Part shown: piece by piece, positions 682 through 6,442 of the stretch | Layout of the letters: each line of letters opens with the position of its first letter | Numbering within the stretch: position 1 is the stretch's first letter | Virus record (IMG/VR): IMGVR_UViG_2684622619_000013 | Length of the DNA stretch: 6,442 bases | Origin: a virus | Taxonomy: Duplodnaviria; Heunggongvirae; Uroviricota; Caudoviricetes | Strand: one strand, 5' to 3' | Translations under genes and position numbers: made by a program | The notes under the pieces: model-generated | The model's database searches: none | What the model was told of the DNA's origin: nothing | The model's input: only the letters and a program-made list of their open reading frames with translations

Positions 682-1124
682 TCGAAACCCTGCTGGATTT
701 TTCGGGGCTGGAGGACATCAGCCGCGATTTGCAGCTTCTGAGTGGTGCAGAAAATAACCGGGTGCTGCGTGAGGCAACCCGTGCGGGTGCGAATGTGCTG
801 AAAGAAGAAGTGGTGTCACGGGCACCGGTACGCAGGGGAAAACTTCGCCGCAATGTGGTGGTCCTTTCCCGGTGCTCCCGCGATGGCGGGATGGAATCCG
901 GTGTGCATATCCGGGGTGTTAATCCGGACACCGGTAACAGCGATAACACCATGAAGGCGGATAACCCGCGCAATGCTTTCTACTGGCGGTTTGTGGAAAT
1001 GGGGACCGTGAATATGCCACCGCACCCGTTTGTGCGCCCGGCATTTGATGTGCGCAGTGAACAGGCGGCACAGGTGGCGATTGCGCGGATGAACCGGGCC
1101 ATTGATGAGGTACTGAGACGATGA
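678..1124 (+). CDS. HK97 gp10-family phage tail component (tail completion-like, analogous in position to lambda Z)
   Basis: 148-aa ORF. ATG at 678 overlaps the upstream stop (ATGA) and is preceded by GGGAGGGG at about 665-672. N-terminus MIETLLDFSGLEDISRDLQLL... and length are typical of the HK97 gp10-like family as I recall it. The ORF lies between the head-closure gene and the tail terminator-like gene. Confidence 0.65.
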   Translation: MIETLLDFSGLEDISRDLQLLSGAENNRVLREATRAGANVLKEEVVSRAPVRRGKLRRNVVVLSRCSRDGGMESGVHIRGVNPDTGNSDNTMKADNPRNAFYWRFVEMGTVNMPPHPFVRPAFDVRSEQAAQVAIARMNRAIDEVLRR

Positions 1125-1465
1125 CGGAGGCGGATTTGTATCCTCATCTGGCGCATCTTGCCGGCGGGCAGGTGTACCCGTATGTGGTCCCCCTGCTGGA
1201 TGGCAGGCCGTCGGTGGCGCTTCCGTGGGTGGTTTTCAGCCTGATTTCATCGGTGTCAGCGGACGTGATGGGCGGGCAGGCGGAGTCCTCAGTGTCGGTG
1301 CAGATAGACGTTTATGCCGGGACTGTGACGCAGGCGCGTCAGATACGTCAGGACGCCCGTGAAGCCATAATGCTGCTGGCCCCGGGATCCGTCAGTGAAA
1401 TGCAGGACTATATTCCGGAAAACCGCTGTTACCGTGCAACCCTGGAGTTTCAGGTCACGGTGTGA
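1121..1465 (+). CDS. DUF3168-like phage tail protein, probable tail terminator (lambda U position)
   Basis: 114-aa ORF, ATG at 1121 overlapping the upstream TGA (ATGA at 1121-1124). Sequence MTEADLYPHLAHLAGGQVYPYVVPLLDG... resembles DUF3168-type phage proteins. It sits immediately upstream of the major tail gene, the canonical place for the tail terminator. Function is inferred from position and family. Confidence 0.6.
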   Translation: MTEADLYPHLAHLAGGQVYPYVVPLLDGRPSVALPWVVFSLISSVSADVMGGQAESSVSVQIDVYAGTVTQARQIRQDAREAIMLLAPGSVSEMQDYIPENRCYRATLEFQVTV

Positions 1466-1530: not shown

Positions 1531-2247
1531 ATGTCTGCTTTGTATGAACGCTCACAGCTGACGCAGGTGATGATTTCATCTGCCCCGGCGACTGCTGAAA
1601 CTATGGATAAGGCGGAATATCTGCGCCTGGACTGCACCATCAAGGAAGTGCAGTTCACCGCCGGGCAGAAACAGGATATTGATGTGACCACGCTCTGCTC
1701 CACAGAGCAGGAGAACATCAATGGTCTGGGGGCGTCGTCTGAGATTTCCATGTCGGGCAATTTTTATCTGAATCAGGCCCAGAACGCCCTGCGTGATGCC
1801 TATGACAATGACGCGTTGTATGCGTTTAAGGTGCTGTTTCCGTCCGGTAAGGGCTTTAAATTCCTGGCGGAAGTGCGCCAGCACACCTGGTCATCCGGTA
1901 CCAACGGCGTGGTGGCTGCAACGTTCTCACTGCGTCTGAAAGGCAAACCGGTGTCCTTTGTGGTACCGCTGGCGTTTGTGAAAAATCTGGATAAGACACT
2001 TACCGTGAATACCGGTGCGCTGCTGACAATGTCAGTCAGTGCCAACGGGGGAACGCCGCCGTATAAATACGCCTGGAAGAAGGATGGTCAGCCGGTTGAC
2101 GGGCAGACGACAGACACCTTCAGTAAGCCAGGTGCGCAGTCCGCTGATGCGGGGAAATATACCTGTGTGGTGACCGATTCGGCAGAGAAAGCACAGAGTG
2201 TGACGTCTGTTGAATGCACCGTGACAGTGAGCGCAGCCGCCGGATAA
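1531..2247 (+). CDS. Major tail (tube) protein with C-terminal Ig-like domain
   Basis: ATG at 1531 with AGGAGG at 1521-1526; stop TAA at 2245-2247. The longer track ORF from 1462 is rejected because it would run through the terminator hairpin and the RBS. Positioned directly upstream of the G/GT chaperone pair and tape measure gene. C-terminal ~80 residues (TLTVNTGALLTMSVSANGG...DAGKYTCVVTDSAEKAQSVTSVECTVTV) carry an Ig-fold signature (D-x-G-x-Y-x-C). Confidence 0.8.
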   Translation: MSALYERSQLTQVMISSAPATAETMDKAEYLRLDCTIKEVQFTAGQKQDIDVTTLCSTEQENINGLGASSEISMSGNFYLNQAQNALRDAYDNDALYAFKVLFPSGKGFKFLAEVRQHTWSSGTNGVVAATFSLRLKGKPVSFVVPLAFVKNLDKTLTVNTGALLTMSVSANGGTPPYKYAWKKDGQPVDGQTTDTFSKPGAQSADAGKYTCVVTDSAEKAQSVTSVECTVTVSAAAG

Positions 2248-2261
2248 GGGGATGGGTCATC

Positions 2262-2636
2262 ATGAAAAAGGATCTGAAAACGCTGGCGCTGGCCAGACTG
2301 TCAGGGTTTCGTCATAAAACGGTGAAGGTGCCGGAATGGGGTAATGTCAGCGTGGTGCTGCGGGAGCCTTCGGCAGAGGCCTGGTATCTGTGGCAGGAAG
2401 TGCTCAATGGTGATGGAGAGGATGACGATACCCTGTCGGTGGTGGCGAAAACCCGCCGTAACCTGGAAGCGGATGTGACGCTGTTCTGCGATGTCCTGTG
2501 TGATACTGACCTGCAACGGGTGTTCACTCCGGACGACCGTGAGCAGGTGCTGGCCGTCTATGGTCCGGTACATGCCCGGTTGCTGCGTCAGGCACTGGAA
2601 CTGATCGCTGATGCAGAGTCGGCCAGAAAAAAGTAG
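2262..2636 (+). CDS. Tail assembly chaperone, lambda gpG-like (zero-frame product)
   Basis: ATG at 2262, 124 codons, stop TAG at 2634-2636. Acidic small protein immediately upstream of the tape measure gene. Ends in the slippery heptamer A_AAA_AAG directly followed by the stop. Confidence 0.8.
   Translation: MKKDLKTLALARLSGFRHKTVKVPEWGNVSVVLREPSAEAWYLWQEVLNGDGEDDDTLSVVAKTRRNLEADVTLFCDVLCDTDLQRVFTPDDREQVLAVYGPVHARLLRQALELIADAESARKK
2627..2633 (+). promoter_or_regulatory. -1 programmed ribosomal frameshift slippery heptamer A_AAA_AAG (G to G-T)
   Basis: In the G frame the codons are aga-aaa-aag-TAG, so the heptamer a(2627) aaa(2628-2630) aag(2631-2633) has the X_XXY_YYZ form. The -1 frame is open from here (…V A R P E I R F L M R L A L R…) for about 100 codons until the N block at 2933. 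Confidence 0.75.
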
Positions 2637-2932
2637 CCCGCCCGGAAATTCGCTTTCTGATGCGACTTGCGCTCCGTCTGGGGCGCACCTTATCCGAACT
2701 GCGCCACAGCCTGAGTGCGAGCGAGGCGATGATGTGGATGGAGTTCGACAGGGTATCCCCGCTGGGTGATGAGCGCGGGGATATCCGTAATGCACAGATC
2801 GTGAAAGCGGTTTTCGGGGCACAGGGGATGAATGTTGCACTGAAGGACGCCATGCTCTGCTGGGGCGAGGATGAGGATAAGCCGGAGGTGGATCCGTTTG
2901 CGGCGCTGGAAGACGCGCTGAGCCTTGCAGCA
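2633..2932 (+). CDS. T-like extension of the G-T frameshift fusion chaperone (-1 frame); 3' end hidden in the N block
   Basis: -1 frame relative to G, open from the slippery site through 2932. Translation ...MMWMEFDRVSPLGDERGDIRNAQIVKAVFGAQGMNVALKDAMLCWGEDEDKPEVDPFAALEDALSLAA resembles the phage tail assembly protein T family. No Shine-Dalgarno precedes the internal ATG at 2660, consistent with expression only by frameshift. The stop codon is not visible. Confidence 0.7.
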
Positions 2933-2984
2933 NNNNNNNNNNNNNNNNNNNNNNNNNNNNNNNNNNNNNNNNNNNNNNNNNNNN
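2933..2984. other. Poly-N block (52 nt), masked or unresolved sequence at the T / tape-measure junction
   Basis: Run of n characters in the sequence. It hides the T stop codon and the tape measure start codon. Confidence 1.
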
Positions 2985-5864
2985 GCTGCGGCAGCCCGGG
3001 AGCAGCGACGTGCCCTGGCAGAACTGAACAGCCAGTTGACGGAAATCCGCGCTTCGGCTGTCGGAATGGCTGGCGCATTTGCCGGTGCCTTTGCCACCGG
3101 ACACCTGATTTCACTGGCTGATGAGTGGAGTTCCGTGAATGCCCGTCTGAAACAGGCGTCGCAGTCATCTGATGAATTTTCGTCATCACAGAAAGTGCTG
3201 ATGGATATCAGTCAGCGGACAGGTACCGCTTTTTCGGATAATGCGGCCCTGTTTGCCCGCTCGGCAGCCTCAATGCGTGAATATGGTTACAGTGCTGATG
3301 ATGTGCTGAAGGTGACGGAGGCCATTTCCACGGGGCTGAAAATCTCCGGTGCCAGTACGGCTGAGGCNNNNNNNNNNNNNNNNNNNNNNNNNNNNNNNNN
3401 NNNNNNNNNNNNNNNNNGGTGACCGGATCGTACGTGCACTGGCTGCGGGTATGGGCGTGGCCCGTAAAGATCTGAAGGCGATGGCGGACGATGGTCAACT
3501 GACGGCGGATAAAGTCGTTCCTGCGTTAATCAGCCAGCTGGAGGTATTGCGTGATGAATACGCGGCCATGCCGGAAACGGTCTCTGACGGGATCACAAAG
3601 GTGGAAAACGCCTTTATGGCCTGGGTGGGTGGTGCGAATGAGGCCAGCGGGGTGACGAAAACGCTCTCCGGCGTGCTGAACGGTGTTGCCGGACAGATTG
3701 ATAATGTGGCAACAGCCGTGGGGGCACTGGTTGCCGTCGGGGTTGCCCGGTACTTTGGCAATATGGCCTCCGGAGCGATGTCTGCCACNNNNNNNNNNNN
3801 NNNNNNNNNNNNNNNNNNNNNNNNNNNNNNNNNNNNNNNNNNNNNNCGCCGCCCAGAATGCGCTGAACAGTACAACGGCGGTGGGCTCACGTCTGATGAG
3901 CGGTGCGCTGGGGCTGGTTGGTGGCGTACCCGGACTGGTGATGCTGGGGGCTGCAGCATGGTACACGCTGTACCAGAATCAGGAGCAGGCCAGGGAGTCT
4001 GCGCGCCAGTATGCACTGACGATAGATGAAATCGCGCATAAAACGCCGTCAATGTCTTTGCCTGAAGCCTCAGATAATGAAGGACGAACACGGGCGGCGC
4101 TGACAGAGCAGAACCGGCTGATTGATGAACAGGCCAGTCGGGTGAAATCCCTGCAGGAAAAAATCGCAGGATATCAGTATGTTCTGGCGAACCCGGGCTG
4201 GACGACCGGTGACGGATTCATGATAAACCATCTGACATCGGTGAAGACCGTAACGGAAGGGCTTGCTCAGGCAACAGAGCAGCTTGCCGTTGAGCAGTCC
4301 CGTCTGGCACAGATGCAGGAAAAAGCGCAGTCCATTCAGGATGTGCTTGCCGGGCTGGAAGACCGTCGTGTGGCGTTAATTCGTCAGCAGGCGGCAGAGC
4401 AGAATAAGGTGTACCAGTCCATGCTGGTTATGAACGGTCAGNNNNNNNNNNNNNNNNNNNNNNNNNNNNNNNNNNNNNNNNNNNNNNNNNNNNNNNNNNN
4501 NNNNNNNNNNCCTGACAAAAACAGAGCGTGAGCTGGCCCTGTCCAGACTGAAAGGGGAAGAAAAAGAGCGTGCCCGGCTGGGGTATGCGGCGGATGACCT
4601 TGGTTTTGTGGGGGATTCGTATCAGGAGGCGAGACAGCGTTATATCAGTAATGCCCTGGAAGCCTGGCGTAATAACGAGGCGAACAAACCTAAATCCCGG
4701 GGTGGAAAATCAGAGACGGAAAAAGCGGAAGACAGTTTTTCCCGGCTACTGAAGCAGCAGAAAGAGCAACTGGCACTGGCGGGTCAGAATACAGAGCTGG
4801 CGAAGCTGAAGTACCAGACTGCGCAGGGCGAACTGAAAACCCTGACGGAGATGCAGAAGCAGGAACTGCTGCGTAACGCGGCCCTGATTGACCAGCAAAA
4901 AATCCGGGAACAGTTGCGATCCCGGGAAGAGACCCTGAAGAATGATAATGTGGCTGCGCGTGCATCAAATGAAGCCGAACTGCTGGGATACGGGCAGGGA
5001 GAACGAGCCAGGGAACGCATGCGGGAGTTGCAGCAGATCCGCGACAGCTTCCGCCAGAAGGATGCGGACCTTCAGTCTCAGTATCAGACCGGGGATATCA
5101 GTGAGGATTTTTACAGACAGGCTCTGGCACAGAACGCGCAGTATCTGAGCGAACGCCTTAAGGACCAGGCAGTCTTTTATGCCGAATCGGATGTGCAGCG
5201 TGCGGACTGGCAGAAAGGGCTGCAGGAGGGATTCAGTAACTGGGTGGATAATGCGTCCGATTACGCCTCACAGGCAGCACAGCTGGCGACGGAGGGTATC
5301 TCAGGGATGGTGAATAACATCACGGAGATGCTGAACGGAAATAAAGTGGAATGGCGCAGCTGGGCCTCATCCGTACTGCAGGAAATATCAAAAGTTCTTA
5401 TGAATGCCGCGATTGTCAACGGAATTAAGACGGCGGCAAACGGTATGTCCGGTGCGGGAGGATTTCTCGGCAGCATTGGTGACTGGCTGGGCGGAGCGGT
5501 GGCCAATGCAAAAGGCGGCGTGTATACCTCGGCAAACCTGAGCGCGTACAGCAACAGCATTGTGGACACGCCCACGTACTTTGCGTTTGCAAAAGGGGCC
5601 GGGCTGATGGGGGAAGCCGGACCTGAAGCTATTATGCCCCTGACCCGGGCGGCGGATGGCTCGCTGGGCGTACGCGCCGTGGGCAGTATGAACGGCAGTG
5701 CTGGTCTGGTGTATTCCCCGGTCTACCACATTGCCATTCAGAATGACGGGGCTAACGGACAGATAGGGCCGGAGGCGGCAGGCAGTCTTGTGCAGCTGAT
5801 TGACCAGCGGGTGCAGGCGGTGATGCTGTCCATGCGACGTGACGGAGGAATGCTGAGTGGCTGA
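2985..5864 (+). CDS. H: Tail tape measure protein, lambda gpH-like; start hidden in the N block, interrupted by three further N blocks with apparent frame steps
   Basis: Coding segments 2985-3367 (frame 0), 3418-3788 (frame 1), 3848-4441 (frame 2) and 4512-5864 (frame 0); stop TGA at 5862-5864. The N-terminal part is Ala/Gly-rich, followed by a hydrophobic Gly-rich stretch (GALGLVGGVPGLVMLGAAAWY), a long charged Gln/Glu/Arg/Lys-rich helical region, and a C-terminus (…IAIQNDGANGQIGPEAAGSLV…MRRDGGMLSG) closely resembling the lambda gpH C-terminal region as I recall it. Confidence 0.85.
3368..3417. other. Poly-N block (50 nt) inside the tape measure gene
   Basis: Run of n characters. The plausible coding frame changes from 0 to 1 across it. 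Confidence 1.
3789..3846. other. Poly-N block (58 nt) inside the tape measure gene
   Basis: Run of n characters. The plausible coding frame changes from 1 to 2 across it. Confidence 1.
4442..4510. other. Poly-N block (69 nt) inside the tape measure gene
   Basis: Run of n characters. The plausible coding frame changes from 2 to 0 across it. Confidence 1.
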
Positions 5865-6198
5865 GATAAAAACGCTGCATCTGGTCCCGCGTGAAGGGAT
5901 GCAGGTGAGTGAGAAGCCGTCGGTGGTGAGGGTGCGGTTTGGTGACGGTTATGAACAGCGCCGCCCCACAGGGCTGAATCCTCAACTGAAGACGTTTCAG
6001 GCGGTGTTCCGGGTGACGGATGAGTCAACCCGGCGCTGGCTGGATGAATTTTTATCCTGGCATGGTGGTTACCGTGCCTTTTTGTGGCGACCGCCGAAAC
6101 ATAACCGGACGGTGAGGGTTGTGTGCCGTGAGTGGAGTGTCACGGATAATGCCCGGTACAGTGATTTCAGTTGCACGATAGAGCAGGTGGTGAACTGA
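5857..6198 (+). CDS. M: Minor tail protein, lambda gpM-like
   Basis: 113-aa ORF starting at GTG 5857, with GGAGGA at about 5844-5849, overlapping the tape measure stop. Translation (...VRVRFGDGYEQRRPTGLNPQLKTFQ...FLWRPP...EQVVN) matches conserved blocks of lambda gpM from memory (…VRKVRFGDGYSQRAPAGLNANLKTY…FLWTPP…EQVVN). Confidence 0.85.
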   Translation: MAEIKTLHLVPREGMQVSEKPSVVRVRFGDGYEQRRPTGLNPQLKTFQAVFRVTDESTRRWLDEFLSWHGGYRAFLWRPPKHNRTVRVVCREWSVTDNARYSDFSCTIEQVVN

Positions 6199-6442
6199 TG
6201 CAGAATATTCATGAAGAAAGCCTGAACGAGTCGGTTAAGTCAGAGCAGTCACCGCGGGTGGTGCTCTGGGAAATCGACCTGACGGTGCAGGGCGGTGAGC
6301 GGTATTTTTTCTGCAATGAGCTGAATGAAAAAAGGGAGCCGGTGACCTGGCAGGGGCGGCAATATCAGGCGTACCCGATTGAGGGCAGTGGCTTTGAGAT
6401 GAACGGAAAGGGCAGCAGTGCCCGCCCGTCGCTGACGGTGTC
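6198..6442 (+). CDS. L: Minor tail protein, lambda gpL-like; 3' end beyond the window
   Basis: ATG at 6198 overlaps the M stop TGA at 6196-6198. Open to the window end, which is why it is absent from the ORF track. Translation MQNIHEESLNESVKSEQSPRVVLWEIDLTVQGGERYFFCNELNEKREPVTWQGRQYQAYPIEGSGFEMNGKGSSARPSLTV closely parallels the lambda gpL N-terminus (…VVLWEIDLTEVGGERYFFCNEQNEKGEPVTWQGRQYQPYPIQGSGFELNGKG…) as I recall it. Confidence 0.85.
   Translation, partial: MQNIHEESLNESVKSEQSPRVVLWEIDLTVQGGERYFFCNELNEKREPVTWQGRQYQAYPIEGSGFEMNGKGSSARPSLTV

Follow-up and report, generated by a model that had tools for sequence, protein, structure and literature searches.

A probable -1 ribosomal frameshift at A_AAA_AAG joining the tail assembly chaperone G to a T segment in an Escherichia coli O157:H7 prophage tail module

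The G/G-T frameshift of bacteriophage lambda was reportedly described by Levin, Hendrix & Casjens in 1993 and by Xu, Hendrix & Duda in 2004, 2013 and 2014. The lambda G:GT ratio is approximately 30:1 and is required for tail assembly (PMC5009743), and in phage HK97 (gp13/gp14, AF069529) the second of the two corresponding products is annotated as 'translated due to a -1 frameshift'. Among prophages, Sharma et al. (2014; NAR 42:7210, PMC4066793 Table S4) list ECs1801 in a cluster designated A_AAA_AAG_25 as 'tail assembly chaperone; [true]', with a footnote that -1 programmed ribosomal frameshifting 'can be safely inferred' and a cross-reference to GeneTack cluster #10. Here we analyze a stretch of 6,442 nucleotides (nt), hereafter the window, from virus record IMGVR_UViG_2684622619_000013, which represents the tail module of an E. 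coli O157:H7 prophage of the lambdoid kind, with an HK97-like tail of the Shiga toxin (Stx) phage type. Its tail assembly chaperone gene G ends in the slippery heptamer A_AAA_AAG, where -1 programmed ribosomal frameshifting very probably yields both G and a G-T fusion. The feature is already known by inference, having been catalogued in 2014 and, for the HK97 homologue, annotated earlier still.

Two open reading frames (ORFs), here G and T, lie between the major tail protein and tape measure genes, as judged from the Pfam matches of the flanking ORFs and from RefSeq annotation (Table 1). The G product matches Pfam Phage_TAC_1 (PF06222) over its full length (1e-61, 206.7 bits) as well as phrog_344, a tail assembly chaperone family, and is labeled 'phage tail assembly chaperone' in a RefSeq genome 100% identical to the window; its ATG at 2262 is preceded by the Shine-Dalgarno (SD)-like sequence AAGGGGA, with an anti-SD pairing energy of -8.4 kcal/mol. 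At the other end of the gene, positions 2625-2636 read AGA AAA AAG TAG in the same frame, which places AAA in the P-site and AAG in the A-site of the heptamer, two codons served by the one tRNA-Lys that E. coli possesses. The -1 frame is open from 2612, 15 nt ahead of the heptamer; it reads K-K|VARPEIRFLMRLALRLGRT... across the site and VARPEIRFLMRLALRLGRTLSEL... from the G of AAG. Its peptide matches Pfam Phage_tail_T (PF06223) at 6e-19 and 68.8 bits (cut-off 25.9; lambda T scores 54.1 bits) and also phrog_337, while phrog_14766, a profile of 224 positions, covers G plus T. The fusion is computed to comprise 226 amino acids (aa) and 25.4 kDa. The last two T codons and the stop fall in a masked run of N, so that the unmasked end was taken from loci L003 and L002; in the 100%-identical genome the frame ends ...LSLAAMS*, 9 nt into the mask.

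Counted on both strands, AAAAAAG occurs three times in the window against 0.57 expected, and the copy at 2627 is the only one in slip register within a gene. It is also the only in-register heptamer of the A_AAG type among the genes upstream of the first N-run, a scan that is reliable only upstream of 2933 because masking leaves the frames further downstream insecure. The heptamer so specified would be expected about 4e-4 times in the 22-nt overlap, an estimate that assumes equal base frequencies. Its location, in a two-frame overlap at the junction of two recognizable domains, is not plausibly accidental. In the genes before the first mask just two more heptamers are in X_XXY_YYZ register, G_GGA_AAA at 836-842 (+ strand, gp10-like gene) and C_CCG_GGA at 1381-1387 (+ strand, gp17-like gene), both low-efficiency motifs in E. 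coli and neither with an obvious -1 ORF. The AAAAAAG at 6328-6334 (+ strand), in the L-like gene, lies off the X_XXY_YYZ register by frame arithmetic from the stop of the M gene at 6198.

The public records tell the T segment differently. RefSeq and GenBank entries of close relatives all annotate T as a separate protein, which would be made by reinitiation or de novo initiation at ATG 2660, 24 nt past the TAG, the heptamer then being incidental. This ATG does lie in the T frame, nine codons beyond the heptamer, all of the Pfam T domain (from ~2714) is downstream of it, and a TGATG present in many lineages resembles a stop-start coupling site. Initiation there nevertheless appears very improbable. 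A scan of anti-SD pairing found no Shine-Dalgarno sequence ahead of ATG 2660, the preceding 20 nt reaching only -3.5 kcal/mol against a window background median of -3.7 kcal/mol, whereas six other gene starts in the window range from -6.9 to -12.8 kcal/mol. The annotations themselves conflict, with PGAP, phage 2851 and PPyecE choosing ATG 2660 (93 aa) and the Sakai entry ECs_1802 a later ATG (69 aa). The disagreement concerns window position 2660 and L121 20472.

The comparative evidence bears on the same question. We gathered 116 related loci from species-representative genomes and viral contigs; together with lambda and three close relatives they gave 47 distinct contexts around the end of G, of which 34 intact lineages, with G proteins 46-100% identical to that of the window, were analyzed. 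An in-register A_AAG is found at the homologous position in every one of the 34, 8 to 10 codons ahead of the conserved T motif F(L/M)M-LALRLG. The complete heptamer is A_AAA_AAG in 19 lineages and G_GGA_AAG (lambda type), G_GAA_AAG (HK97 type), A_GAA_AAG or A/G_GCA_AAG in the rest, such that the tetramer A_AAG is the only invariant element. The A-site codon is AAG in 34/34 lineages, as opposed to 33% of the lysine codons elsewhere in the same G genes (Fisher p = 7e-15), an invariance that reflects selection on the synonymous choice and that a separately initiated T would leave without explanation. In seven other lineages the heptamer is directly preceded by a stop in the -1 frame, so that this frame is open for no more than 7 nt ahead of the G stop and the frame change must fall within those 7 nt.

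Coding after the slip site is equally apparent. In the 20 lineages where G stops at the site, the 27 nt up to the ATG have mean entropies of 0.51/0.72/1.06 at codon positions 1/2/3 of the -1 frame, and they show the synonymous variety of translated sequence (all four CCN codons for Pro; GGT, GGG and GGC for Gly; TTT and TTC for Phe; CTG, TTG and CTA for Leu) while conserving the peptide pattern V..P(G/L)..F(L/M)M. Were T to start at its ATG, these 27 nt would be noncoding in all 20 lineages. In the window the corresponding nine codons, whose peptide can be aligned gap-free with the beginning of lambda T (VFDGELSFAL), would on the reading frames be reachable only through a frameshift from G. 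The ATG itself is not conserved: Met(2660) is replaced by Leu in the Xenorhabdus lineage L018, where no ATG occurs before residue 32, and other lineages have it at a different place, while lambda T has no start before residue 16, which lies inside the conserved region. Codon-like variation ahead of an ATG that is not conserved implies that translation must enter the stretch from G.

The anatomy of the site, the homology of both parts, the lack of a start signal for T, and a conserved slip site followed by -1-frame coding are therefore directly supported. Gene order, domain content, the missing T ribosome-binding site and the comparative evidence are the grounds on which we favor -1 frameshifting. 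An earlier note on this stretch had already proposed such frameshifting to give G and G-T as in lambda-like phages, and its main points are borne out: the heptamer with the abutting G stop is present as described, T lacks a ribosome-binding site of its own, and the mass it estimated for the fusion, roughly 25 kDa, agrees with the computed value. It was also right that the -1 frame encodes a T-like polypeptide, but that frame is open from 2612 and not merely from the slip site onward.

Further observations were made among the relatives. The loci L016 (Leclercia adecarboxylata NCTC13032) and L033 (Candidatus Symbiopectobacterium endolongispinus), which match the window from 2501, have a disrupted G end and T frame with a -1 ORF of merely 104-134 nt and look like decaying prophages. 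A 191-aa protein from a Logan assembly (P0023) carries Phage_TAC_1 and Phage_tail_T in one called ORF, which may reflect an indel in the A-run that is either an error of sequencing or a genuine in-frame fusion in nature.

The same fusion could in principle arise by transcriptional slippage, in which RNA polymerase adds one A on the A-run in some of the mRNAs, as a single added A leads to the same protein as a -1 ribosomal shift. The site is indeed a homopolymeric run, A6 in the window and A9 in the 67-69%-identical L114 and L119, and AAAAAAA is under-represented in E. coli, partly for this reason (PMC4066793). We regard this origin as extremely improbable, given that many lineages as well as lambda have only A3-A4 at the site (GGGAAAG, GCAAAG, GAAAAG) and that what is conserved is the A_AAG register and the G after the run, features that matter for tRNA re-pairing and not for the polymerase. 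Moreover, bacterial RNA polymerase slips appreciably at runs of about 8-9 or more, and the A6 of the window is shorter than that. The related E. coli lineage formed by L114 and L118-L120 (67-69% identical, ~2860-2869) reads AAA AAA AAG at this place, and its A9 run, unlike the A6 of the window, would be long enough for transcriptional slippage to contribute there.

A further alternative is that ribosomal frameshifting depends here on a dedicated cis-acting stimulator, for which the candidates are the stem formed by GGCGCA (2682-2687) and TGCGCC (2700-2705), a hairpin at 2667-2720, or a weak hairpin at 2639-2664. Such dependence would accord with published reporters: with no stimulator present, frameshifting was only 0.29% for A_AAA_AAG and 0.28% for G_GGA_AAG, rising to 4.3% and 3.8%, respectively, when the IS911 elements were included and to 39% and 43% when the IS3 pseudoknot was used (PMC4066793 Table S3). 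The 87 nt after the site fold at -32.3 kcal/mol (z = -1.98), and the weak hairpin stands at a 5-nt spacer from the heptamer, the spacing of the hairpin that Sharma et al. predicted in 85% of the genes of this cluster (PMC4066793). On the other hand, the stability of the hairpin predicted there does not exceed the local average (delta-delta-G 0.020 +/- 0.023), and the cluster has an SD entry of N (PMC4066793). In a 171-nt context the z-score of the window is only -1.0 and the structure changes, while RNAalifold applied to the 34 lineages from -30 to +90 around the site returned no consensus pairs. When the minimum free energy structure of the window, including the stem at 2682-2687/2700-2705, is laid on the 34-lineage alignment, ~64% (62-65%) of the cells pair, a figure biased upward because the window supplied the structure, and for most pairs the share of lineages in which pairing is lost is 30-70%.

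The stem at 2682-2687/2700-2705 lies 48 nt from the heptamer and is lost in Sakai Sp9 and PPyecE_EH1910, 99.5-99.9% identical to the window, through the single change C2704G, and the G+C-rich palindromic sequence codes for the conserved LALRLGRT motif of T. No SD-like element was detected in the 25 nt upstream of the heptamer, where the best anti-SD duplex reaches -3.0 kcal/mol, so the window lacks the dnaX/IS911-type element that would sit 6-17 nt upstream; Rfam, searched with 2400-2932 at E<=10, yielded nothing beyond sub-threshold matches without meaning. Dependence on a dedicated stimulator consequently seems improbable. The doubt voiced in the earlier note, that its stem might be too distant to stimulate, thus proved sound, the stem being present yet without family consensus, and the downstream folding it recommended did produce a weak hairpin and the modest z-score over 87 nt, with no consensus fold across the lineages. 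Its appeal to dnaX holds for the identity of the heptamer but not for high efficiency, since A_AAA_AAG alone gives the 0.29% quoted above, against 39% with the pseudoknot.

The abutting stop codon could itself contribute. It adjoins the slip site in 20/34 lineages and lies 1-8 codons further on in the others, including the HK97-type, Xenorhabdus-type and lambda G genes; abutment is therefore not required in the family, and lineages with noncanonical heptamers are not enriched for it (7/11 vs 13/23, Fisher p = 1.0). The abutting stop may modestly stimulate frameshifting without being essential to the family. A stronger version, in which P-site re-pairing is dispensable in the x_GCA_AAG or x_GAA_AAG lineages, UAG acts as the stimulator instead of RNA structure and slow termination by release factor 1 lets the P-site tRNA-Lys slip, strikes us as unlikely. 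If the stop does stimulate, the G:G-T ratio would be sensitive to release-factor availability or growth state.

Returning to -1 frameshifting at the heptamer, we infer production of the fusion, its frequency and its role in assembly from these data and propose the following course of events. Most ribosomes translating G would stop at TAG 2634-2636, yielding the 124-aa G protein, whereas a minority would slip back by one nucleotide on A_AAA_AAG, with the A-site tRNA-Lys re-pairing from AAG to AAA and the P-site tRNA-Lys from AAA to AAA. The slipped ribosomes would then read GTA GCC CGC ... in the -1 frame and complete the 226-aa G-T. The only tRNA-Lys of E. coli prefers AAA to AAG in pairing, on account of which A_AAG is the most shift-prone tetramer, and V_VVA_AAG the most shift-prone heptamer class, in E. 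coli (PMC5009743; PMC4066793). An exchange between A_AAA_AAG and G_GGA_AAG would not be expected to alter the G:G-T ratio much, because the reporter values of the two are alike. If lambda is a guide (PMC5009743), the tape measure protein could be coated by G together with the G part of G-T and the major tail protein recruited by the T part, with the G:G-T ratio fixed by how often the frameshift occurs.

Several points weigh against this account. The bare heptamer performs poorly in the reporter (0.29%), and the level reached here may depend on further context. A literature search found no experimental report on the frameshift site of this prophage, the grade given by Sharma et al. is 'safely inferred' and not demonstrated, and RefSeq and most phage records treat T as an independent, ATG-initiated gene. 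The exact 226-aa fusion, in either its window or its Sakai version, was not found in a collection of 15 billion proteins. Finally, G of the window belongs to Phage_TAC_1 and lambda G to Phage_TAC_2, a difference in Pfam family that leaves HK97-type relatives and position as the support for treating the G part as functionally analogous.

Table 1. Features of the G/T locus and its neighbors, in window coordinates
Feature	Coordinates	Strand	Basis and remarks
Major tail protein gene with C-terminal immunoglobulin (Ig)-like domain	1531..2247	+	Directly 5' of G; Pfam, RefSeq annotation
Gene G, tail assembly chaperone, 124 aa, 14.0 kDa, zero frame	2262..2636	+	Pfam Phage_TAC_1, phrog_344
Two-frame overlap, zero (G) and -1 (T) frames both open, 22 nt	2612..2633	+	5' bound is the -1-frame TGA 2609-2611
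Slippery heptamer A_AAA_AAG, X_XXY_YYZ register	2627..2633	+	Sequence; conserved in-register A_AAG
Zero-frame stop TAG of G, abutting the heptamer	2634..2636	+	Sequence
T segment of the predicted G-T, -1 frame, 102 codons, 100 visible	2633..2932	+	Pfam Phage_tail_T, phrog_337, phrog_14766
First nine T codons VARPEIRFL, -1 frame, ahead of any ATG	2633..2659	+	Codon-like variation; lambda T alignment
Internal Met codon of the predicted G-T; public-record start of a separate 'T' gene	2660..2662	+	RefSeq/phage coding-sequence annotation
Tape measure protein gene	2985..5864	+	Directly 3' of T; Pfam TMP_3, Tape_meas_lam_C; L003 annotation

The window as a whole matches E. coli O157:H7 prophages and long-tailed Stx-converting phages, and over positions 2200-2932 the identity is 100% with strain JEONG-1266 and 99.6% with phage 2851. 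Its genes follow one another on the + strand as head closure, HK97-gp10-like, gp17-like tail completion and major tail protein, then the two small ORFs, the tape measure protein and an M-like minor tail protein. The Ig-like domain of the major tail protein (Pfam Ig_3, Ig_2, I-set) is fused in frame, and the gene is named differently in the records, as 'major tail subunit' by PGAP and as 'immunoglobulin domain-containing protein' in the phage 2851 RefSeq entry.

Coordinates beyond the T segment are affected by masking. Runs of N at 2933-2984, 3368-3417, 3789-3846 and 4442-4510 do not preserve length, the 52 N at 2933-2984 standing for ~191 nt in the 100%-identical JEONG-1266 prophage, and on this account frames or ORFs that cross a mask are artifacts and downstream coordinates are off relative to public records. 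The ORF 2660..3121 was rejected as the extent of T for this reason, as was the transfer of L003 annotation coordinates to genes beyond 2933; the tape measure ORF is likewise broken by N-runs, with its start inside a masked stretch. In the interval from the end of T to the tape measure gene, L003 (4752-4779) and L002 (2250-2278) carry a terminator-like hairpin (CCTGC-TGTG-GCAGG) followed by T9, and its site in L003 corresponds to the masked stretch after window position 2932; at the same position HK97 has a moron (gp15) and a putative terminator. Two more terminator-like hairpins with T-runs, at 1452-1468 and 1494-1508, separate the gp17-like and major tail protein genes, a number that is not above expectation (2 in 1452-1520 vs 1.2 by shuffling).

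The practical value of these results is in annotation, as Sakai, phage 2851 and the RefSeq genome that matches at 100% all show T as free-standing, with start codons that disagree, RefSeq lacks G-T for these prophages, and HK97 is the only inspected record to carry a frameshift join. Their biological value is limited, because the site was catalogued in 2014 and the HK97 homologue annotated earlier. The set of 34 lineages, which runs from canonical heptamers to bare A_AAG and has the stop abutting in 20, nonetheless constitutes a natural experiment for frameshift predictors.

Set against described systems, the locus is nearest to that of Sakai prophage Sp9. The ECs1801 protein is identical to the G of the window at 122/124 residues (98%), GCCAGAAAAAAGTAGCCCGCCCGG is identical in the ECs1801/ECs1802 region, with no difference in T frame or gene order; Sp9 differs in the G at window position 2704, which breaks the stem discussed above, and in the N-terminus of its tape measure protein. 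By gene family and by its in-register A_AAA_AAG, the window falls within the cluster A_AAA_AAG_25. The family to which its G/T pair belongs is the HK97 gp13/gp14 type (PF06222 + PF06223), with which it agrees in both parts and in slip position: HK97 shares 60% identity over the 226-aa fusion and the same gene order, and its slip position relative to T is the same (VSTPGVKFLM vs VARPEIRFLM). The HK97 site, in contrast, is CGG GAA AAG (G_GAA_AAG) and not A_AAA_AAG, HK97 G continues for five more codons (SQPPA) past the site without an abutting stop, and the moron gp15 intervenes between T and the tape measure gene.

Two better-known sites share less with the locus. The E. coli dnaX gamma/tau site has the identical A_AAA_AAG and relies on the same single tRNA-Lys, but it combines an upstream SD-like element with a downstream stem-loop, operates at ~50% and gives a shorter product, whereas the window has no SD-like element and no evident conserved stem-loop, and its frameshift would give a longer product. 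Lambda G belongs solely to PF06894 (Phage_TAC_2) and the G of the window solely to PF06222, the two being 22% identical in alignment, so that membership of the window protein in the lambda G family was rejected; the lambda heptamer is G_GGA_AAG, followed by five more G codons before the stop, and lambda T is longer (144 vs 102 aa). The T parts, on the contrary, share PF06223, a homologous shift position and the A-site codon AAG, and both -1 peptides place V directly after AAG and align gap-free over their first 18 residues. In common with the G/G-T frameshift systems of long-tailed dsDNA phages, the window has a second ORF that overlaps the first in the -1 frame without a start signal of its own, and a slippery sequence in the overlap that is conserved among relatives.

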